A program made the position numbers and the translations under genes. From the NCBI RefSeq assembly GCF_038025025.1, contig NW_027117342.1, positions 2,418,001 through 2,469,777 on the forward strand: 51,777 nt of DNA, in the 5' to 3' direction. This stretch comes from Phyllosticta citribraziliensis (taxonomy: Eukaryota). The notes beneath the pieces are model-generated. The model made no database searches. It saw only the letters and a list, made by a program, of their open reading frames with translations, and was not told the DNA's origin. This document shows positions 34,791 to 51,777 of this stretch, piece after piece (position 1 is the first letter of the stretch; the number at the start of each line of letters is the position of its first letter).

Positions 34791-34965
34791 GAGGTGAGCG
34801 TGAGCGCTTTTGGGCGTCGAGAGGTGAGCGTCTCCGGCTGAGCGTCTCCACTCCAAGTGAGCGTCTCCGACTGAGCGTCTCGAGGTGAGCGTCTCCAGCG
34901 ACTCTCTATCTCCGGCTGAGCTTCTCCAGGTGAGCGTCTCGAGGTGAGCGTCTCCAGCGACTCTC
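34791..34965 (+). repeat. Irregular tandem array of TGAGCGTCTC motifs upstream of the DUF7918-like gene
   Basis: 7 exact TGAGCGTCTC copies plus variants, separated by short variable spacers. Confidence 0.85.
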
Positions 34966-35059
34966 CACAACACCACCTTGCCGCCCATCGACACCAACTT
35001 TAGCTGGCCGCAACGTCGACGACCTACCTCAGCATACCTAGCCTTGGACACTCACCACA

Positions 35060-36965: not shown

Positions 36966-39953
36966 CCGCCGGAAGAAAGATGGTGAGCGCCCTATTTGGG
37001 CGGCTGGATGCGTTGCTGTTTACTGCTTGTCTCGAGGCATTTGATGCATGGAAGTTGCATTTGCACGGGCTTTTGGAGGAGTGATTTCTGTTCTGTCTGA
37101 TGGGGTCTTTTTTTCTCCCCCTTGCTTTATTTTCTTGCGAGAGCTGGCTTTCTCATGCTCTCTTTTCTGGGTCCCATTCCCATTCCGTCTGGAGATTGTG
37201 GTTTTTGCGCTGGTCGACTGCTGGAGAAAGGGTGAGAAGGTTCTCAGTTCTTCTGGCGATGCTGGCGGCGAGGCCACTTCGAGCATCTCCCCATTCCACA
37301 GCTTCAGTCAATTCGAGACATCCCATTTCGATCGAAACGTCGCCATGTCTTGCCTTTGTCTGCCGCTTTGTTCTCACTTTGACGCGGCAGGGTTTGCTTG
37401 ACTGCGCCCTGCAGCTGCTCTGTCACATTATTTGTGTTTAACTCTCAACTCTTCTATTGTTGGCGTTTCTTGGTTTACTTCGCATCCATCTACGCTGGAT
37501 TTCTGTCCGCGCTACATTGTTGAACACTTTGCTGCATCTAAGATTTTTTTTGCGGCGGAAGCGGCGGTGTTGTGCACTCTTCTGCTCCCTTTTTTCTCCG
37601 CGTAGGTGGAGAAAGGGACATGGCATGATTCTAAGAAGCGCGACGTCTGGCTGGTGGAACGTGAGGGGATGGGTTCTGAGATTTCTATTGCCTGCTTCCT
37701 GTCTAACTGTTGCAATTTTCCGCCGTTCTTCTGGACTAAACTTTGCCTTTGCCAACTCAGCAACGCATCTCCGGCCGCATCGACAAAAGTCCAGACTCTC
37801 TGCTTCCGGTCCACGCAGCGAGCGCACTTTCCGCCGCCAGATCCCTACAGGTATGTCGGCTCAGATGCGCACTGCAGAAGTACGCGACACTGCACCTAAG
37901 TGTTTAAGGGAAGGTGATGTGGAAGTCAGTCACGATCGGCCGCGAATACGCCACAGAATACCCCACGGAGGCGGCGCGAGCCGTCTACCGCGTGTATGCA
38001 TGGAATCGCAGCAAGTTTACTATCTTAGTCTGCGTCGCTATCCACGGACACTACCAGTTGCGCGGCGTCGACGCTCTGCGCGCGGGTTGAGGTTGTGGGT
38101 GACGGGGGCCGCCGCGGGAAGACGTGGCAGTTGGAGGACGACGAGGGCTGCTTCAAGAGGCGGGAGAAGGTGGATGGCGGCGCACACATCCTCACCCCGT
38201 CTCTTGCCAGCGCGTCGGCAGGGCGGGCGATGGGACGTCGTTTTCGCCGCTCAGTGATAAGGGACTTGGTTTGCCGGCATGTCTTTGAGGTTGGCGTCTG
38301 TGTTGAAGGTGAGTCTGTTTTCTCTGAGTAGAGTACTTGCTGATGTTGTGGATGCGGTGGAGAGGGTTCAAGCGACGGGCTTGGTCCCTGTGCCTCGTGG
38401 GATTGCAGCCAGGTCCCGTTGCAGAGAGAGATCGAGGTCTCCGCCGCCATTTCGGAGAGTGTTGTGACGGAAGGAACGCAAAAAGGCTGGAGACGGTAGA
38501 GACGAGGCTTCATTTGGCGGAACGGAAAGGTTGGAGAAAGACTGCAGGGAAGGAGATCACGGGAATGATGATAGGGGCGAAGACAAGGAAATTTGACAGC
38601 AAGGAGAACATGGGAGAAGACGCAAGCGAAGTCCCGGAGCATCAACATCTTTTTCAGGGCCGCAGCACTCACAGAGAGCTCATCTCGTCACCACCAATCG
38701 TGAGGTCCTACGCGCGAGCCCTCGCGTCGCTGAGTTCCGGCGTCCGCATATTTGCGCTAGACTCGCCAGGTGAAGGCGTCATCGTTCTCTGCGAGCGGAA
38801 GCTAGATGGCGATGGAACTTTGTTGTTTTGGGGAAAAGAGAAACTTTTGGCTGTAGTCCGTGCGATTGAGGGCAAGCAGAGAGTCGTCGAGCCGTAGGAG
38901 ACACATTTTATGTGGAAACTGCTGACCAGCGACGGAGCCACGCAGTACTCCAATCTTCGGGAAAGAAGAAATCCTCGACAGGTCAACCCGTTGGCTCAGA
39001 ATGCGCGGTACCACCGCTGCCACGTCCGCGCCTTTGCGAGCAGCCAGCGTGCCGATTCCACGTCTTGATGCTTTGCAGTGCCAGTAGCCTCGAAGCGATG
39101 CTGAATGATCCAGACGTGTCGCAAGAGCGGAAGGAGGAAGTGAACGAGCGCTTGGATGGTCAAAGTGTGTAAAGGTTGGTTGTTTATGTCAAGGCGGGAG
39201 TCGAATGTAATTGGCTAACTGTAACACAAAGAGGTGTTGCGAAGTGTTGGAGTCTTCCGTTTGCACTCCATTGGTTGCTACAGATAGGTAACCTCTCGCT
39301 TATGGCGACATGACGTTATTGGTCGGTCGTTTGCTTCCAGCAGAGTCGTCCGCCGTCGCTTCTCAACACACTCCTGATCCTCAAATTCTATCGACAAATT
39401 TGGCTTGATCGATCGATACGTCAAGAGTCATGCGACAAGAGCAGCTTCCCCCCGGACTGGCCCCCTTGTTCGCCCCTTTCCACCCCTTATTCCCTACCCC
39501 TATCGATGGATTCACTCGGCGCTCCGACAGGACATTTGACGAAAAGCGGACATGCAACATCATCCTCAGCGACTCAAAAATGAAAATAGGAACCAGGGGT
39601 GCGGGTCGTTCCATGTGGCTTTTGGACCCTTGCCATCCGTCCTCTGCCGGCTGATTAACAAGGTTTGTCACGGAGCTTGAGCGTCTCGGTCTGCAACGGT
39701 CTGCTCCAGTAGCAAGTGGTGTTATCGGCTTTTATGAGTCGTCTGACTTATGCGCGCGAATTTAAGCAGTGCACTAATAGCGCAGTCTAAATACTTTTAT
39801 CTCCTATTAAGTCTCCTGCTCCCTCAGCGTCTAACACTTATTAATAAGCAGCGTTTAGTCTATAGACATCGATCCTTATAGGATTATAGTAGTACTAATA
39901 GTTTTAAATAATATATAGTAGAAAGATACTAACTTAATAAAGGTATAGGAAAT

Positions 39954-40910
39954 ATATACTATCCTAATAGTATAGACGTGTTAATTATCTCTACTACTAC
40001 TAGTAGAATATAGCAGGAATACTATACTATTAATTTATTACTATAACCTAGGATAGAAGAACCTAGGAGAAAGGAATACTATATAAAGGGACGTCCTAGT
40101 AATAGATTTAAAGTAGTTATAGTAGTGTATTAAGGATTTAAATTCTAAAGCGCTACTATAATATAGTAGGAAATTAAAATTAATAGCGACTAGGGGTTTT
40201 TAGTACTAAGATATATTATTAAGGGGCAGTTAAAGATAGCAGAACAGGGCCGATATATTATAGAGTTTAAGGAGGATATAAGGCCTTTATTTCTAGTTAA
40301 GGGCTTACTTAATATAAAACTAAGATTTAGAAAACTAGGTAAGTATATAATTAGAACCTTAAGTATATTAAATATACTAAAAGATCTTAATAGTTTCTAA
40401 AGAGAATAAGGGGTAGATTATAGACTTAGTACTTAAAGAATACTACTTTAATAAGATTTAGATTACTTACTAAAAGAAGTCCTACTTAAAACGACCTTAC
40501 TTTTACGCCTATATAGGTTATAGGCTACTAAGTTTAAAGCTAGGATCGCGGTTTTAGAGTAATATTAGTATAGGTCTCTATACTAAGTAGGTATAATTAT
40601 ATAAGTATTAATAGCTCCTAATAATAGAGAAAACAGACTAAAATATAAGATAGTAGACTATAATAAACCTTAGATATATAACTCTAATAATAACAGCGTG
40701 GACCATCCTATATAGTTTATATAATAGGGTTTTAAAAGAGATCCTAAAGGAGGCTCTAAGGGAGAAAATATTAGAGATCTATATATCTTTATTTTCTAGT
40801 ATAGGTTAAAAGGTAAAGTTAAATATAGATGTATAACACCTAGGGTTATAAGTAATATAATATAATATAACCTTAACTCTAATTATATAGAGTTACCCTA
40901 TATAATAGGC
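39954..40910 (+). pseudogene. RIP-destroyed paralog of the DUF7918-like gene
   Basis: Reads EYYIKGRPSNRFKVVIVVY*GFKF*SAT, KLRFRKL and IFIF*YRLK, matching YIKAITGEQFEV..HHGFRYYTAT, KLAFGEV and VFEFRYRSL. GTAAGT/GTAAAG donors lie at equivalent positions. Confidence 0.65.
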
Positions 40911-41039
40911 TTTACTAATTATATTATATAATTAAGTAGTTTAATTATATAGAATTACTTTTATTACTCTTACTATTAAAAATTACTACCTAGTAGAAAT
41001 AATTTAATTTCTCCTTTATAATCTAAATATACTAAAAAC

Positions 41040-41273
41040 TACTACCTACTACTCTTACTACTAAGAGTACCCCTTATTTAGGGCTATCTCTCTTATATAT
41101 ATATATAAAATACTAAGACCTAGTTTTTTATAACTTTTAGGGTATATATAGTAGTACTACCTAGTATATACTCTAAAAGTTATAAAAAACTAGGTCTTAG
41201 TATTTTATATATATATATAAGAGAGATAGCCCTAAATAAAGGGTACTCTTAGTAATAAGAGTAGTAAATAGTA
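41040..41273. repeat. Near-perfect palindrome, ~110-bp arms around a self-complementary centre GTAGTACTAC
   Basis: 41040-41150 is the reverse complement of ~41164-41273; mismatches are mostly transitions. Confidence 0.9.
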
Positions 41274-41477
41274 TTTTATAGGGGTAATTTAGTAGTATAT
41301 ATATATATAATATAAGTATATTTTTAGTACTAAGACTTAGTATACTAAGATTTTAACTTAATTACCTAGTAATAATTAGTAAAATAGTAGGAGACTATAA
41401 GGAGAGAGGTAAATTTAAGTATATAAAATATATAATAATAAAGAGACTAGTTCTAAATAACTACTCTAGTATAGATC
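41161..41477 (-). mobile_element. 3' end of the hAT transposon, left of the gypsy insertion
   Basis: The transposase frame continues across the AGATC TSD (..S*IYTRVVI*, de-RIPped SWI.AGVVI stop). The left boundary is inferred from the palindrome arm. Confidence 0.55.
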
Positions 41478-41945
41478 TATTACGACTTGCAGATTTCTTA
41501 TTATATAGATAAGGGCTAAAGGCAAACTACTAGAAAATATATATATATCTTAATTAAATCTAATAAGTTAAAAGAATAAAATATAAAAGATACTTACTAC
41601 CTATATATTTTCTAGTCCTTTCTTTATACTATTCTACCTCTTATCCTTTATATAAGGGTCCTTAGTCATTATTAGGTAAGTTATAAAGGTAAGGTGTTAA
41701 TAGGCTGTTATATAGTATCTACCTAGGGCTATAGTAGCTAGTGCCAGCCTATAGTAGCTAGTACCAGCCTATAGGTTTTAGCCTAAGCTATAATAGGCTA
41801 CTACCTAAGGTAAGGCTCGTGCTTCCTATAACTATATAATGCTAGGTTTATCCGTGCTAGCCCTAGTACTTGCCTATTATATAATGCTAGGTTTGTCTAT
41901 ACTAGCCCTAGTACTTATATAGGTATATATATGCCTATTATAACA
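41478..41945 (-). repeat. 3' LTR
   Basis: TATTACGACTTGCAG...GCCTATTATAACA; matches 49347-49814 apart from transitions. Confidence 0.92.
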
Positions 41946-42317
41946 TGCCCCCTCTAAAGAGAAGCTAAAATTATAGGAATTAGTAGCTATAGGTGCTTAT
42001 ATAGGTACAGACTTATAATATATAATAGTAGTAATTTAGTAATTTAAGCATTCTATATAGTTATAAAGTATAATTATTAGTCTAGGTCTATTACTATACT
42101 ATCTCTTTCTATTACTATCTCTTTTACCGCGCGACCTATAGAAGGTTACTATCTTACTTAGCTATATCTAAAGCTCCCTATTAAAGTACGTTGTTATCCT
42201 AGTCTAATTTAGCTATAATCTAGTAAACTAACTATTATATATAAAGGTTCTAATAATTTAAATAATTTATATCCTACTAATAGTAAAGTAGATATTCCTA
42301 GCTACTATATGCTTAAT

Positions 42318-43700
42318 ATGTCTGCTGCTTATTATAGTCTAGTCTATTAGGACTTATTACTATTATATAAGAGTTATAGTATTAAGTTATTATTATATAG
42401 TATTATTTATAATCCATTATAGTCGCCACTTACTTAGAGAGCTGTTTTAGCTAGTAGTATCTATAAGGGCTATTATATAGAGTTCTAAGGTAAGTAAACT
42501 TTAATTCTATCTCTTTAGACTATTACTAATTATTATCTAGGCTGTTAAGTAGTATTATATATCTAGGTTCTACTACTTTATCATCCCGTCTTACTAACCG
42601 ATATAATTATAGAGGAGGACACTTATATAAATACTTAGTTAGGCTAGGCTTTACTTATTTAGCTAGGAACTGCTATAGGCTTATTACTTTACCTATAGCA
42701 TGCTATAGTATTAGGTTCTACTTAATTAGTATTATTAGTTATTACGCGAGATTTGTTATCTATAGCTATATAGCCTACTACTAACCAGCCTATTACGCCG
42801 TATTGCCGCCAGTTTACTATTATACAGCCTGTTTTAGAGGAAGAAGGTAAAGAGCCTACTTATATATACTATTATTATAATTCTATAGCTTATTAGGTTC
42901 TAGTAGCTAAGTACTTACTACCTGCTACTTTATATAATAGTAGTAATAGTAAGATTCGCGTTATAGCATTACTAGTTAGTTCTAATAAGGCACCTATTAA
43001 GTAGGACTTTAAGTTAATACTTTATATCTCTTATAAGAATATAGAGAGTGTCGCGTAAGTAAGTTTATCTTACTAATATAAGGGATTCTTATCTAACTAA
43101 TTATATAGGCACACCTTAGTAGTTCTAAAGTATAAGAGCGCGCTAAACGCATCTTAGCCTTAGATAATAGTATGCCTTACTTATATATTATAGTTTCTAC
43201 TTAGTAATTTAACTACTTATTAGTTAAAACTTAAGCCAGCTTGCGCGATGCTTTTCTTATCTAGTATACTAGAATTAATAACCCTATTAGCTATACTAAG
43301 TGTTATAATAATACTAATACTTGCGCGTTTATTAGTTATTACTACCTACCTAGTTTCTTATAGGGCCGTTGCGCTAACTGCCTTTAAGGTATAGGCAACT
43401 TAGACTACACTATTAGTAACTTAAAAGGTGCCAAGCCGCCTGCTTATTATAAGAGGCGTAAAGATAAAATTTATATAGAGGAGTTCTAGAACTTATACTA
43501 CTAAGCTAGAGTAGAGGATTAAACTAATTAGGCTTTAGCTAAGTAGGACATCCTACTTAATAAGCTAAAGGATCTAAAGAAGACTATCTTATATAATAAT
43601 AGTTATAATAAGAAGAAGGGAAAAGGATAGAAGTAAAGGGTAGAAAGTAAAGAAGAGGGAAGTAAAAGATAAGTAGTAAAAAGAAGAGACTAGAGAGTAG
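42318..43700 (+). pseudogene. Antisense intron-containing accessory gene (DUF3716-like Cys motif) inside the retrotransposon, RIP-inactivated
   Basis: 43245-43410 reads DAFLI*YTR..YTKC..CAFISY..GRCANCL, de-RIPped A.L.Q..G..CxxC..F..C..G.CANC. Intron-like GTAAGT..CTAA..TAG at 42490-42540 and ~43055-43108. Ends approximate. Confidence 0.6.
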
Positions 43701-43779
43701 AAGTTAAGGTTAATAGTATTTATATAAGAGTAGATAGTAAACTAATTAGTCTACTTTCTATATCTTTATAATATTTACT

Positions 43780-46700
43780 ATAGGCCTAAGTAACTTGTTT
43801 TATTATTACTTTCTATTTTAATCTATAGTTCTTCTTAGAGGAAGGCAGTCTTCTATTTTTCTAGATTTTTTAGTAGTCCTACTATAGTAGGGTATAATAA
43901 GTGGAATTCTTTAATTTTCTATAGTATACTACTAAAAGAACTTATATTATACTACTAGTTATCTTAGTTATATCTAGTCTATTTAACTTAGTATTAAAGC
44001 TTCCTATATAAGACTTAACTAGCTTAAATATAGTCTACTTCCTACTTAGGCTCGTCTTAAATAATCTTAGGTTTAGGTTTAGTATATTCCTAACTAGGAA
44101 GCTGTTCTATTTTAGCCTTATATAGCCTATTAGTATAGAAAAGGTTGACTATCTTTATATATAAGAGAAGATTAAGGATATAGGAGGATCCTTCTATTCC
44201 TATAATCTTAAAAGGTCTAGTATTAGGAAAGTCTAATTTAAGGTTTAGCTAATTAGTAGACCATTCTATTTTCTTAATATAGATATAATCTCTAACTATA
44301 AAGTCTAGCGCGCGACGGTATTTATTAGCTTATTAGTATATATACTCTTAGGATTTAAGAATAAGATTCTTTATAAATTTAAAAGCTTCTTATCTTCTCT
44401 TTTATAGCGTTTATACTACTATATAAGCTATCTTTTCTAGTTACTAGGGGGTCTCTATTCTTTATTACTAGTTATAGTATATTTAAGAGGAATATCCTAA
44501 CTTAATCTTAAAAGGTAAAAGTCTAGTAGCTTTATAGGGAAGTATTACTTATATAAGGTCTATTAATAGTAGAAGATCAGACTAATTATTCTAAAAGTAA
44601 TTAATAAAAGGTCTTAATCTTTATATAAGATGCTAATTAATAATCTCTATAATACTATTAGTTTAAGAGTAGTAGGATGAGTTAAAATACTACTCTATAC
44701 TAGTTAGCTTATATAGTTTATTTATAAATACTAAGATAAACTAAGGGCCTTAGTTAGATAGGATAGACTTAGGGTTTCTATAAATATAGTAGATATATTT
44801 ATAAAAGAGTCTAGAGACTCCTTTAGTATTAATCTTCTTTATATAAGGCAAGCTAAAGGTTCTTTAACTTAACTAGTCTATAATAACTAGAATTACATTA
44901 TAGCCCTTTTAGTCTTTAGGCATCTCTTTAAAATCTATAGCTAAGTATTACTAGGGTTAAGTAGGAATCTCTAGGGGTTATAGAAGGCCTAGGTCTTTAT
45001 TATAAAACTCTTTTATTTAGCGGCAAATATAGCATCCTTACCTATAAATATTAATTATACGATTTATAGCTAGCTAGTAGTAATATTACTTAAGGAGTTT
45101 TTACATCTTTATAATACTAGGATAGGTAGTTATATAGGTAGTATATAAAGTATTAAGTGTTCTTATATAGAGGTTATTGCGATCTAGTATAAAGAGGGTG
45201 CTATATTATAGTAAAAGACTATCTTTTAGTTCCTAACTATTTCTTTATTTAAGGTCTTTTAAGAGGGCTTTCTATCTCTAGAGTTCTAATTTAGAATCTT
45301 CCTAGTTTATATAGAGGAGTTTATCTAAAAATAATACTAGAGGAGGAAGTCCTTATTCTAAAATAGAAAGAGGGATAATAGTCTCTAGTAGGATAAGGCA
45401 TATCTCTTATATAGCCCTTACTTTTTCTTTTTAAGTCTTTAGGTCTTCTTATTTTTAAGTAAGGTAATTAGTAATAATATTTTCCTTTCCTAGTTAATAG
45501 GAGAATTATATATAGAATTCTATAAAAAACTTAGACCATCTAGCTTGTTATTAATTAAGTTGTTATTTAGTAGAGTAGTACTCTAATACCTAATAGTCTA
45601 TAATTATAAGAAAAGGTTTTTTAAGGCTAATAAGTATTAGTCTTTATTCTTCTAGTCTATTCTTAATAGCTAGTAGTTCTTTATCTAAAATTCTATAATA
45701 AAGTTCTACATCTACTATTGCCTTAGAGTAGAAGGCTACTAGTTTCTAATTATATAAAGGTTATTAGAGCTGCATTAAAACGCCTATAGTAACTCTATTA
45801 CTTATATTAGTCTCTATATAAGTGTTAGGAGTAGGGTTATAATTAGCTAGAAGTGTATTACTATATATTAGCTTCTTAAGTTATTAAATTGCCTCTTCTT
45901 CTAGGGGTCCTAGTTATTACTATTTTGCCTTAGAGTATAGTTTCTCTAATAGCTAGCTAATTTATCTATAGTTAGGGAGAAATTATTAGTAGAAATTATA
46001 GAAACCTAGGAAGGATTAAAGAGCCTTAAGGGTTTTAGATATTAGCTAGTTATATATAGGTTCTACCTTATCTAGGTCTATTTAAATGCCTTCTATAGAA
46101 ACGATATATCTAAGGAACTTTATATAAATAACTAAAAACTTACTCTTCTTTAAATCTACCTATAGTCCTGCCTTTTATAGTCTTACTAGTACTTTTTTTA
46201 CTTGTTCCTCGTGCTCTATAGGGTTTTTAGAGATAATAAGCATGTTGTCTATAAAAGCTATAATAAAATCGTCTAAATACTTAAAGAGAACCTAGTTAAT
46301 AAAATATTAAAAGGCTACTAGTCTATTACTTAATCTAAAAGGTAAGATATAGTATTTAAATAACCTATATCTTATATAGAAAGTGGTTTTATCTTTAGAA
46401 TCCTTAGTAAGATAGATGTAGTAGAAAGCTTATTAAATATTAAGCTTAGTATAAATCTTGCCCTTTCTAATGCGCTAAAGCAACTCTATAATAAGAGGGA
46501 GGGGGTATAAATCCTTAGTAGTTTATTTATTAAGCTATTAGTAGTCTATATAAAATCTCTATCCCCTACTAGGCTTTTTTACTACTAGAATAGGAGAAGT
46601 ATAGGCGGTAAAGCTTTTAGTAATAAAGCCTTTCTAAATATTCTTAATAATATACTCTTTTATAGCCTTAAGCTGTTCTAGAGATATTCTATAGAGAGGG

Positions 46701-47560
46701 CTAGGTAGAAGCTCTAGTAGACTATTATATATAAGAGATATTTTATAATCAACTCCTACGTAATATAGTAGTAGCTTATTAGACTCTATTTTAGAAAACA
46801 CATCTTAAAATTCCTTATAAGTAGCTAGTAGCTTAGAAGCTAGTAATTCCTTAGTTTCCTTATCTTTAAGAGCTACTTAAACTTATATAAGGTTAATAGT
46901 ATAGATCTCTATTAGCGCAACTTGTATTTTATAGATAGAAAGCTTAAAAGCATCTTAAGTTTAAAATTTAATTCCCTTAATAACCTATACTAAGGGAAGA
47001 AGGCGTTTATTAAAGTTTTTATCTCTATAGTCTATATCTACTTAATATTCTTTCTACGGTTTATTACTTCGCACAGAGATTTTTAGTAGGTATAAAAGAT
47101 ACTAAAAGGATTAGTTAACTAGTAGCTATCTCTAGACTAGTTTACGTCGTTTATAGTCTAGAAGAACATCGTACTAGTTAAAAAACTATTATCTAAGAAT
47201 CATGTTATTACGGCTAATATCGCAAATAAAAGTATAAGTAGAAACTATTTAATCCTAGAAGTAGAGTTAAAGATAAAAGTAAAAATTAACTTTTTTATTT
47301 ATATATTAGTTAAACCTAGTAATATTAAGCCCTTTACCTATTATTCTCTTTTTTATAGCACCTATAGACTGGAGAGTTAGTAGTAGCTTAGGGTAAATAA
47401 AACTTATACTACTAGTACTAGTATTAGCTAGGGCACGAATTTCTAAGGCGCGGCTATTAGATATAATTAAGGTTTATATAGTAAAGGGTACACCTCTAAT
47501 AAAGTAACTAAGATTTATATAAGAACCCTTAATATATATTACTCTAAGTTTAGACCTATA
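43780..47560 (-). pseudogene. RIPped pol (protease, RT, RNase H, integrase, chromodomain)
   Basis: ALANTS (ALADTG) ~47420; LFKYYILPFRLSN ~46345; YLDDFIIAFIDNML ~46260; SYYS*TNSIIE (HPQTDG) ~44665; Y*VK*TRY..IKEFH ~43950. Confidence 0.85.
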
Positions 47561-47569
47561 GTAGGAGAC

Positions 47570-49150
47570 TTTACCTAGGTCTTATTATTTTCTAATAAAG
47601 ACTAATCTCCTTTATTTATATAGATATCTTTAGTGCTTTCTTCTTTAACTAACTCTATTACCTTCGTCTTAGGTTATAGGCATTATCTCTATAAATGGCT
47701 AAACTAGCTATAGTAATTACACGGTCTAATCTCTATATAGACTTCTACTTTACCTTTATAGGTTATATTATGCAAGGGAGCCCTAGATATAGATCGCGCC
47801 TAGGTATAACTAGAAGATAAAGTACTTATACTACTTAAGGTAGTTATCTTTACTTATTCTTATTATCTCTTCTTTACTCGTTCCTTATATAACGTGAGTA
47901 TTAGTTTTCTATAGTTAAAATAGTAGTTACTAAGACTTTAAGCAATAGGGTAGGCTTATTAGAGGTACTTATAAAAGTTAATATCCCTATCTTACTCTAT
48001 AGTAACTATATAGGTTTAAAGGAGAGGATCTATTATATTATAAAAGTCCTCTTTTTACTATTCCTAGGGAAGATCTACATCTAAGGCTAATTATATAAAG
48101 TTTAATTAAAACTTCTAAAGGTCTATAGGGATGTAGTATATAAGAGAGTATAACTACTTCTTTATATCCTTATATTTATATAGACTCTAGAAGAGGTTAT
48201 CTAGGAATTTAAAGATATCCTTATCTAGAGTGACTTTATTAGCCTTTATATAAGAAGTAAGGAAAGGAGTTAGGTAATATAAGACTTCTTTACTAATATA
48301 GGAAATAATATAACCTGTAATATTCTATTTAGTCTCTTCTACTATATCTTTAGTAAAGTAATTATAGTTTTATTTAATTTTATTTTATATAAGAAGGGTC
48401 TAGTATTTATATAAGGGGTCTTCTCTATTAGTAAGAAGAGGAGGATTAGGAACCTTACTACTTTAGTATTTCTTACTACTTAAAGATAAAGTAGAGGTTT
48501 TAGTAGTAGTTTCCCTTATATAGTTAGGAGGAGGTCTAAGAGTCCTTATAACTCTACTAGTAGAAGGATCTTAAGAGAGGGTAATAGGTCTTAGGTGCTA
48601 AGCTAATAAAGAGGGCCTAATATATCCTTCCCTTAGAACTTCCTTAAGTCTATTAGTATAGTTTAAGAGTATTTACTTAAGAGCCTAGTTCTACCTTTAT
48701 ATATAGTTTAGTTGCTGCTATACTTAAGACTTATTTAAGGATGTAATCTTAGATTTAAATTAATTAATATCTAAGTATAGTACCTTTATAAACGCCTCTA
48801 TAACTAGAGCTTAAATAGTATAAGTTAACCCTAGGTCTTAGGTATGTTCTTTTACTTCTACTGCTAGGACTAAGTAGAAATTATATAGGAGAATAGGGGT
48901 AGGTCCTCTCTTATTATTATTTAATAAGTATCTAGTATTGCGCAAATCTTTAGTCTCTTTATATAAATCTTGTTAAGTTGATTAACTAGTACTAATACCT
49001 TTAGTAGTACTAGACGCGTCGGCTTTATTCTTAGCTATACTGTCTTTATAGTCTTCTACTTAGAATGTTCCTTAAGTAGGTTATAGATAGGACGCCTCCT
49101 AAATATTTATATACTGCCCTATAGCCTTAACTAAAGACTTCTATAGTTAA
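47570..49150 (-). pseudogene. RIPped gag
   Basis: KVPNPPLLTNREDP (KVPDPPLLTDGEDP) ~48440; zinc knuckle CNYYS*FSHL*R*C (CX2CX4HX4C) ~47700. Boundaries approximate. Confidence 0.75.
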
Positions 49151-49346
49151 TACGTGCTTAATACTCCTTAGTCCTTAGATGATACTAATGCGCCTAATAA
49201 AGATAACTTAGGTTTACTAGGGAAAAGTAACAAGTAGTCTTATATAAGACTATAGCTATACACGACGTCGCTTAGGTTAAATATTATAATACCTTTATAG
49301 GTAAAGAAGTAGGATAGAGCTAAAACTTAGAATAATCTTTTATATC

Positions 49347-49814
49347 TATTATAACTTATAGATTTCTCGTTATATAGGTAAGGGCTAAAGGTAAACTACT
49401 AGAAAATATATATATATCTTAATTAAATCTAATAAGTTAAAAGAATAAAATATAAAAGATACTTACTACCTATATATTTCCTAGTCCTTCCTTTATACTA
49501 TTCTACCTCTTATCCTTTATATAAGGGTCCTTAGTTATTATTAGGTAAGTTATAAAGGTAAGGTGTTAATAGGCTGTTATATAGTATCTACCTAGAGCTA
49601 TAGTGGCTGGTGCCAGCCTATAGTAGCTAGTACTAGCCTATAGGTTTTAGCCTAAGCTATAGTAGGCTGCTACCTAAGGTGAGGCTCGTACTTCCTATAA
49701 CTATATAATGCTAGGTTTATCTATACTAGCCCTAGTGCTCGCCTACTATATAATACTAGGTTCATCTGTGCTAGCCCTAGTACTTATATAGGCGCGTGTA
49801 TGCCTATTATAATA
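49347..49814 (-). repeat. 5' LTR
   Basis: Direct repeat of 41478-41945, followed by the TSD AGATC. Confidence 0.92.
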
Positions 49815-49819
49815 AGATC

Positions 49820-51777
49820 TAAGATTAAAATATCTAGATAATAGTAATAGTATTACCCTCTAAGTAGTTATATAAAGATATAATTATTTAACTAGTTATA
49901 CTAAATATATACTTAACCTCTAATAATATTATAGGAATAGATAGAATATTAAGTACTATTTAAGATAGGTATAGATACTACTATTAATAAAAATACTAAT
50001 ACTTAAGAGGATTACTATTTAACTACTCTACTTAAAATTAACTTAAGACCTAGTTATTATATTTATCTTAATCTAATAATATTATAGCTTACTTAAAATA
50101 TATAGCTATCTAGCTAGTAAAGTTTCTATTATCTTTATACCTTTATTTCTTTTAGACTAGCTTAATATCTTTATTTAGCTACTACTCCTTATAAAGCTCC
50201 TAAAGCTATCTTATATATTATTTAGTCTAAAATAGCTATATAAAGTAAGGACCCTCCTACTTCTTCTTAAACTAAATCTATTAAAGTTATAGATAAAGAA
50301 TAATTATAGCTATATAAATAGGACTATTTTCTATCTTATTATAGTAGTATTAAAGTTTTTCTATAATAATATCTAGGTTTACTTAAAAGATATTATTTTA
50401 AATTTATATAGTATAGTTCTTAGCCTTTTTAAGGTATAAAAGAAGATATTTAATTATAAGGAGAACCTTCTAAACTATACTATTTTATCTATTCTCTATA
50501 TTTCCTTCTAGTACTTTTATAATTTTAGTAAAGTATTTAAGAATCTTATAGTAGTATAAAAGTATATTTTAATTATTTAAATCTAGTATATTATTAAGGA
50601 CTATAGGTTAAGACTTTTAGTATAATAGAGGTACTTATTATAAGGTCTAAGTAGTCTATTAAAACTACTAGTAGTAGTATTAAAAAGTAGAGGTTTTACT
50701 ATACTTATACTTATAGTACTTATCTAATATAAGGGCTTTAATTAGACTAGTAATTTAAAGTATATAACTAATTATATACTTAGTTAAGTTCTACTAGGTA
50801 GTATTATTAAAAATAATATTATATATTAGATTACCCTTCTTAAAACCTACTTCTATCTTCTAGTATAAGTAGAGGTACTTTATAAGTAGTTAAGAGTAAT
50901 AAATCTAGTATATAATATTATAGAGCTTATTAATTACTCCTTTCTTATATTATTTAAAATACTAGGTTAAGGACTCCTTATCTTTAATTAAATTAATATT
51001 ATTATTAAAAAGAAGCTCTTAATAGACTAGATTAATAATATAGCCTATATACTAAAAGTAGTACTATATATTATTAAAGTTAAGCTTAAAAGAAAGGGCC
51101 TCTATATACTTATTATTATTATTTATATTATCTATAATAAAATACCTAACCTTTCTATATATATTTTATATATAGATAATATCTAATACCTTCTTTATAA
51201 GATAATTACTAGTATAATACTCTTTAAAGGTAGAGAGGCTAATAAGGAGATAGTAGAGCTTTATATCTTTATTAATAAAGTAGTAGATAATTCTAAGTAG
51301 TTAGGTATTATTATAGGTAGTCTATATATTAAAAGAGATATAGATTAGGCCTAGAGTACTTTAAAGAAGATTTATAACTATACCTATATACTAGTTAAAC
51401 TTATTAATAATATACTTATAGATAGTAGTATAGGAAAGGCTAATTAACTAAGCTTTAAGATAAATATAGTTAAGTAGAGTATAGAATATAGGTACTTTAA
51501 GCTTTAAAAAAGGAATATTCTTATATATTATCTAATTAATAACTAGCTACTTAAAGTACTCTAGATTAAAGTCTTAAATAATATAGTTTAAGATACTTTA
51601 CTCTACTAGATTATCTATATTTAATTAGAGTCTTTATATAATAGAAATAGTTATATACTTCTATAACCTTTTACTAATTAGATCCTTAATCTTATAAATA
51701 GTTATTAGGTAGTAAGTATAGTTAGTAGTACCTTTAGCTTAAAGAGTAGAGATTAAATAGGCCTTTATTATAACTTA
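49820..51777 (-). mobile_element. RIP-inactivated hAT-superfamily transposase (runs off the window end)
   Basis: GYFIIDNINNN (DNAxNND) ~51130; F*YIGYIINLV (RCIGHIINLV) ~51040; NTT**NLT (NATRWNST) ~50795; hATC-like LNILSIPIILLEVKYIFS (LDVLSIPAMSSEVERIFS) ~49920. Confidence 0.85.

Follow-up and report, generated by a model that had tools for sequence, protein, structure and literature searches.

The window, the whole 51,777-nt stretch of Phyllosticta citribraziliensis DNA analysed here, falls into two parts. Up to ~39.9 kb it consists of GC-rich host genes, one of them a formin, with an array of 14-nt repeat units at 34811-34979. Beyond ~39.9 kb the GC content drops to 21-30%, and RIP indices are strong. 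Inside this RIPped block, the minus strand carries an LTR element of 8.3 kb. The element's 3' LTR (41472-41945, minus strand; 474 nt, ends read directly) pairs with the 5' LTR (49341-49814, minus strand) at 92.4% identity, and transitions account for 36 of the 37 differences. The polypurine tract (41946-41953, minus strand) adjoins the 3' LTR as a minus-strand G run just before the LTR's TG. No clean target-site duplication was seen at the element's ends.

The pol region (43778-47500, minus strand) comprises a protease-like start, reverse transcriptase (RT), RNase H, an integrase region, and a chromodomain-like end. It contains 114 stops in 1237 codons; Pfam RVT_1 and RT_RNaseH match one minus-strand frame read through its stops. 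The best homologs of pol carry RT, RNase H, integrase (PF00665), and often a chromodomain (PF00385). Pfam Chromo had no match on the RIPped pol frame, the end of which aligns with homologs, many of them carrying PF00385. The gag region and leader (47501-49340, minus strand) are assigned from their position between the 5' LTR and pol, and this region has no Pfam match. With two LTRs, a polypurine tract, and the pol order PR-RT-RH-INT all present, the element is a RIP-mutated Ty3/Gypsy chromovirus, its pol on the minus strand.

An inverted repeat (41032-41281; 117-nt arms, 94% complementary; 16-nt loop) lies 190 nt left of the 3' LTR. Near the 5' LTR, positions 49815-51777 (minus strand) hold a relic on which RIP has acted more heavily and which weakly matches the hAT dimerisation domain (E 0.07); possibly a hAT transposase gene was the insertion site of the Gypsy element.

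The end of pol at ~43778 leaves a spacer of ~1.83 kb up to the 3' LTR edge at 41945, in agreement with the ~1.8 kb proposed in an earlier reading made from the letters of this DNA (the sequence-only reading). To follow this spacer into other copies, contigs of four public runs (of the 16 listed) were compared with window positions 41300-45300. Contigs lie across the LTR, spacer, and pol (389 in run X5 and 414 in run X6; 29 of 30 bins covered), and they differ from the window mostly by RIP-type changes: C>T, G>A, A>G, and T>C. Over 43554-43698, two X5 contigs depart from the window sequence at 19 and 10 letters, and therefore represent at least two further copies in one sample. The spacer tail and the pol end are bridged by contigs in X5, X8, and X9; the junction of LTR and spacer is bridged by none among the contigs listed. 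Summed contig depths for spacer and pol, which do not equate to copy number, are 37/66 in X5 and 50/50 in X6.

The spacer belongs to the element family: several diverged copies carry it in the run contigs, where the sequence-only reading had allowed that it might prove absent from other copies. An independent, one-off insertion is unlikely because of these diverged copies, the pol-spacer bridges, and the fact that no terminal inverted repeats or duplication were seen bracketing the spacer (RIP could hide them).

The antisense gene model

On the plus strand, the spacer can be read as three putative exons separated by two introns. Exon 1 (42318-42489, plus strand) is the weakest part of the model: its frame is set by the phase of intron 1, and its start codon is uncertain, the putative ATG at 42318 (373 nt inside the 3' LTR edge) having an alternative at 42309. 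Intron 1 (42490-42540, plus strand; 51 nt, phase 1) has the form GTAAGT..CTAAT..TAG. Exon 2 (42541-43058, plus strand) is without recognisable domain and takes its frame from the splice phases. Intron 2 (43059-43108, plus strand; 50 nt, phase 0) has the form GTAAGT..CTAAC..TAG, with an alternative donor at 43055. Exon 3 (43109-43770, plus strand) is a read-through whose right end is uncertain; it includes a Lys/Glu/Arg-rich tail from ~43610 and a purine-rich repeat at 43622-43680.

The two intron-like segments seen in the sequence-only reading hold up. A search of both strands of 39900-51777 (11.9 kb, or 23.8 kb of strand-sequence) for GTAAGT..CTAAY..YAG found just these two matches, both on the plus strand. 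Under Markov nulls of order 1-3, the chance of at least two such introns is P = 0.0095-0.0185. Among the run-contig indels listed (12 of 14), the two deepest in the spacer fall in the 51-nt intron 1: one of 4 nt in X6 (depth 21.4 of 32.7), and one of 2+1 nt in X5 (depth 16.7 of 40.1). Shallower indels lie upstream at 42105 and in exon 2 at 42903 and 42963-42967. Among the runs listed, none on record as RNA contains this stretch. Contigs of run X9, which is only presumed to be RNA, span both introns unspliced and show no splice joint at either, a result that speaks neither for nor against expression.

The introns also predict reading frames. Exon 3 is fixed by the motif G-R-C-A-N-C, described below; intron 2, in phase 0, joins the exon-2 frame to the frame of this motif, and the splice phases then give the frames of both exon 1 and exon 2. 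The predicted exon-2 frame has the fewest stops of six (11 in 172 codons, vs 16-27 in the others), and it also ranks top by a purine/pyrimidine frame model, a score that is unaffected by RIP. For exon 1, the predicted frame leads the six on the purine/pyrimidine score but does not have the fewest stops. The joined model contains 31 stops in 428 codons, vs 49.8 expected (p=0.001); the predicted product would be ~430-460 aa long.

These frame tests have a weak control: when pol was split into three pieces, its true frame came only 3rd, 4th, and 2nd among the six on the purine/pyrimidine score, and stop density placed it 2nd. For exon 3, the opposite frame in register with the predicted one does equally well. 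Strand assignment therefore rests on the introns and the motif. The gene model was moreover chosen after inspection of the sequence. The copy in the window is dead, with 34 stops in 457 codons. As for the antisense, spliced third gene that the sequence-only reading proposed, its position, intron phases, and six-cysteine pattern stand; the start at 42318, the stop, the splicing, and the promoter are putative.

The six-cysteine pattern

Exon 3 contains the six-Cys pattern C-x2-C-x11-C-x10-C-x2-C-x8-C (43292-43408, plus strand), in which three places are now Tyr. The motif G-R-C-A-N-C, noticed as a survivor in the sequence-only reading, is indeed read in the plus-strand frame at 43364-43381. Cys codons are kept at 43301, 43370, and 43379, and Tyr codons (TAT, TAT, and TAC) occupy the expected Cys places at 43292, 43337, and 43406; RIP would leave such codons at former Cys places. 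An extra Cys codon at 43322 permits a second register, C-x2-C-x6-C-x15-C-x2-C-x8-C. The A.L.Q..G portion of the motif, also claimed, is only partly there: A and L are kept, the Q place is TAG, and the G place is AGA. The DUF3716 pattern, which we take to be C-x2-C...F-x2-C...G-x-C-A-N-C...C, is matched by the window's motif in RIP-tolerant form. This RIP-tolerant six-Cys pattern, composed after inspection of the sequence and modelled on that motif, has one match in the six frames of the 11.9 kb and none in 500 Markov shuffles; the exact G.CANC likewise occurs in none of 500 shuffles.

Could the spacer instead be non-coding, its introns and motif the product of chance in AT-rich, RIPped DNA? 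The spacer is without a database match, the patterns were chosen post-inspection, and the frame-test control is weak. However, neither the intron probability (~0.01-0.02) nor the shuffle counts favour chance; the splice phases agree with the low-stop frame, the deepest indels lie in intron 1, and intact analogues exist (next section). Chance is a very improbable explanation. The reading that we prefer, with a probability of roughly 0.7, is that the spacer is what RIP has left of an accessory gene, which this chromovirus family carried in antisense orientation to gag-pol.

Antisense genes in the pol clade

The 50 best pol homologs form one group, which was used to scan metagenomes. Of 531 stretches confirmed, the best 80, ranked against P0001, were kept; 14 of these loci have no pol end and 9 no called polypurine tract, leaving 57 measurable. 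Ty3-type pol also appears in prokaryotic metagenome-assembled genomes (L081-L084, P0050, and P0094), probably as eukaryotic contamination. A spacer of at least 250 nt was called in 7 of the 57 measurable elements. Two of these calls (L011 and L058) are pol-end miscalls, and two others (L035 and L048) look like circularly permuted contigs that continue into gag. The genuine long spacers left are those of L034, L043, and L008. In L034, which branches beside the window's group, a sense ORF of 563 aa (L034:6825-8513, plus strand) lies between pol and the 3' LTR; it is of low complexity, rich in Lys and Glu, and matched by no Pfam family above the cut-off.

The other two, L043 and L008, carry antisense six-Cys genes in the spacer (2 of 57 measurable elements). 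The 80 loci contain 14 double-CxxC ORFs in all, and only those of L043 and L008 lie in spacers. The L043 gene (L043:4507-5319, minus strand), between pol and the polypurine tract of an un-RIPped chromovirus, is intact as modelled with three GT-AG introns: of the three possible acceptors, two leave the frame open, for a product of 221 or 226 aa, and the frame stops 109 nt from the pol stop. Its predicted protein combines a six-Cys cluster (C-x2-C-x10-C-x9-C-x2-C-x6-C), a coiled-coil-like exon, and basic KRP/KRPR motifs. The L008 ORF (L008:4295-4546, minus strand; 84 aa, unspliced as read) ends at the pol stop, contains a run of ~20 T near its end, and has the pattern C-x2-C-x11-C-x8-C-x2-C-x6-C. 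The two domains are 30% identical over 50 aa (E 2e-4). These intact clade members support the view that antisense six-Cys genes exist and, by their predicted splicing, yield open frames. The sequence-only reading had looked to intact relatives, and in part they are there: L043 and L008 carry such genes in the slot, and neither has detectable homology to the window's gene (for the window domain against the L043 protein, E=2.5).

An RT-RNase H tree places these elements (78 of 84 loci and 16 of 18 chosen proteins; 150 sites, the window being 68% masked). In it, the window clusters at 0.957 with elements that have spacers of 40-118 nt where measured (L001, L002, L041, L051, L053, and L066), at an identity of at most 69%. 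L043 and L008 form separate branches of a neighbouring group. The antisense slot is filled patchily across the clade, because the closest relatives are without the gene and L043 and L008 stand on separate branches.

Patchiness also bears on a second explanation: the spacer gene was captured in reverse, either from a DUF3716-type gene of the host or with part of another transposon that carried one, and is a passenger with no role in retrotransposition. The short spacers of the closest pol relatives indicate that the gene is dispensable for the clade; introns are kept only by antisense capture, which alone accounts for the orientation; and DUF3716 is known both as a host gene (PSC58, PMC10776026) and as DNA-transposon cargo (REP9, PMC8232023). 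Yet two other lineages have an intact six-Cys gene in the same slot, which random capture would rarely give, and no bracketing repeats are visible, although RIP could hide them. A passenger is thus fairly unlikely, and an accessory gene carried by the family remains the better account.

Homology searches bear on the identity of this gene. Pfam found no family on the spacer read-through at E<=1 or E<=10, a miss that is expected because half of the cysteines (three of six, now Tyr) are mutated; the Pfam cut-off for PF12511 is 22 bits. Zn_clus (PF00172) matched neither the window nor L043 nor L008. A word-index search with the exon-3 read-through left none of 147 candidates standing, and four phmmer matches among 1.84 billion representatives were unrelated repeat proteins. 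Comparison of the spacer with the 80 loci (tblastx and blastn) gave a best E of 0.009, attributable to the composition of AT-rich RIPped DNA. Viral contigs contained no pol relative, no exon-3 relative, and no motif match. A PF12511 search matched in none of the four genomes behind L081-L084, where its control likewise matched nowhere.

A profile of the window, L043, and L008 domains, built on alignments only partly in register, gave five candidates, of which a single one held up: L008's own protein. The same three-sequence approach in a PDB sequence search gave the IRF2BP2 RING (E 0.008), a Cys-driven match that was rejected. In the Atlas, L043 and L008 both score below 0.9, their nearest neighbours being unnamed ascomycete clusters; a cluster that is 28% DUF3716 lies at 0.78 and 0.79 to L043 and L008, and DUF8257/DUF8414 clusters lie at 0.77-0.80, values that are leads only. 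Folding the L008 ORF from its sequence alone gave a pLDDT of 57.5 and a model without any Foldseek match, and was uninformative.

The DUF3716 label for the spacer gene is plausible, and on the strength of the motif we consider it somewhat probable that the spacer protein belongs to this family. No report of DUF3716 in an LTR retrotransposon emerged from the literature searched, which took in few subscription journals. A third explanation accepts a real antisense gene and gives it a different product: one acting via RNA, as an antisense transcript or by dsRNA damping, or a six-Cys protein unrelated to DUF3716. Antisense RNA has been named as a possible role of such ORFs (PMC7264820). The modest Atlas scores of the DUF3716 clusters, matched by those of DUF8257/DUF8414, indicate that several six-Cys families exist, and the Cys codon at 43322 permits the alternative register. 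Nevertheless, the DUF3716 pattern given above accommodates both the G-x-C-A-N-C core and the F-x2-C place, and the retention of introns and Cys places suggests that a protein was made, which makes this explanation quite improbable.

Possible function and known systems

In its most likely interpretation, the spacer gene is a dead accessory gene for a DNA-binding protein of the nucleus. Introns antisense to an element are not spliced from its sense genomic RNA, and so survive reverse transcription; the spliceosome does not recognise them in that RNA, and they are copied with the element. The gene would need its own antisense transcript, begun in the 3' LTR or in the 370 nt behind it. The predicted product, with its six-Cys cluster and basic charged tail, would suit a nuclear zinc protein, presumably zinc-binding and probably DNA-binding, of DUF3716 or Zn-Cys6 type. 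Possibly this protein was a trans-acting factor for the transcription or chromatin of the element itself, and we propose this role tentatively.

For a VANC-like anti-silencing factor, the cognate element would be expected to contain many closely spaced copies of a short target motif. No dense motif or palindrome array stands out in L043, L008, or the window's element, in the last of which RIP blurs such signals. Two hexamers are over-represented across whole elements elsewhere in the clade: CCGTAA in L024, L026, L005, and L021 (34 in L026, vs 3.8 expected); and CGTACG in L017, L076, L011, and L013. These hexamer-rich members show no antisense six-Cys gene. The array pattern does not support an anti-silencing reading, because arrays occur in elements without the gene and none stands out in those with it.

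In the window's own element, the RIP-tolerant motif YAGSCTR occurs five times in each LTR (41701-41800 and 49570-49670), five times in intron 1 and exon 2 (42538-42831), and once in the 5.5 kb of gag-pol. The LTR copies are partly a 20-nt tandem repeat, and the motif was not significant in a systematic palindrome scan.

A broader proposal is that fungal chromoviruses repeatedly recruited different zinc-cluster proteins with six Cys, from DUF3716 and from sister families, to the antisense, intron-keeping slot, as sequence-specific DNA-binding factors that activate or unsilence their own family. We consider this unlikely as matters stand. If true, such repeated recruitment would be a fungal counterpart of plant VANC or retroviral Tat/HBZ, with L043 as an intact, testable example. 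What antisense extra genes do for LTR retrotransposons is still debated (PMC7264820), and the DUF3716 domain, one member of which binds DNA, likewise awaits a function. Should the slot in fungal Gypsy elements prove to encode DNA-binding proteins of the zinc-cluster kind, the two problems could be tackled jointly. The dead copy in the window cannot answer the question of function; its intact relative L043 could.

Several known systems invite comparison. The Zn(II)2Cys6 (Gal4 type) pattern has two C-x2-C pairs with a first loop of x6, its first half (C-x2-C-x6-C) including basic residues. The window's pattern resembles it in its six Cys, two C-x2-C pairs, closing Cys, and subsequent charged or coiled-coil-like sequence. 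In contrast, the first loop of the window is x11 in the preferred register, and the loops of L043 and L008 are 10-11.

Known DUF3716 (PF12511) proteins occupy other settings. In Zymoseptoria, REP9-1 and REP9-2 are cargo of the DNA transposon REP9, and REP9-1 lowers sporulation in planta (PMC8232023). Fusarium PSC58 is a DUF3716-type host gene (PMC10776026). Neurospora NCU05718 is orthologous to a DUF3716 protein and makes direct contact with double-stranded TTAGGG, an activity shown for the protein and not for a particular domain (PMC4650311, PMC10776026). The difference from the window's gene is plain: REP9 is a Class II element, whereas PSC58 and NCU05718 are host genes.

Plant elements offer a match in both position and orientation. 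Their antisense ORFs (aORF-3R) include maize Grande gene23 and those of rice RIRE2, Silene Retand, and bean PvRetro13; they are present family-wide and their function is unknown, although GENE23 is nuclear and a regulatory role has been proposed (PMC7264820). Maize Grande has a promoter upstream of its own antisense gene (PMC7264820). Unlike the window's gene, these belong to plant hosts and encode SMC-like and Transposase_28 domains, with no cysteine-cluster domain described in that account (PMC7264820).

In a fungus, the brtn gene of the Botrytis element Boty has the same slot and orientation as the gene in the window's element. The likeness observed is one of position and orientation, and the window's copy differs in being dead. 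The brtn gene is reportedly multi-exon. Boty is a Ty3/Gypsy element in which this extra antisense gene lies between pol and the 3' LTR (PMC8365987, PMC7264820). An antisense extra gene in this position has already been published, including in a fungus, and the window holds a further example.
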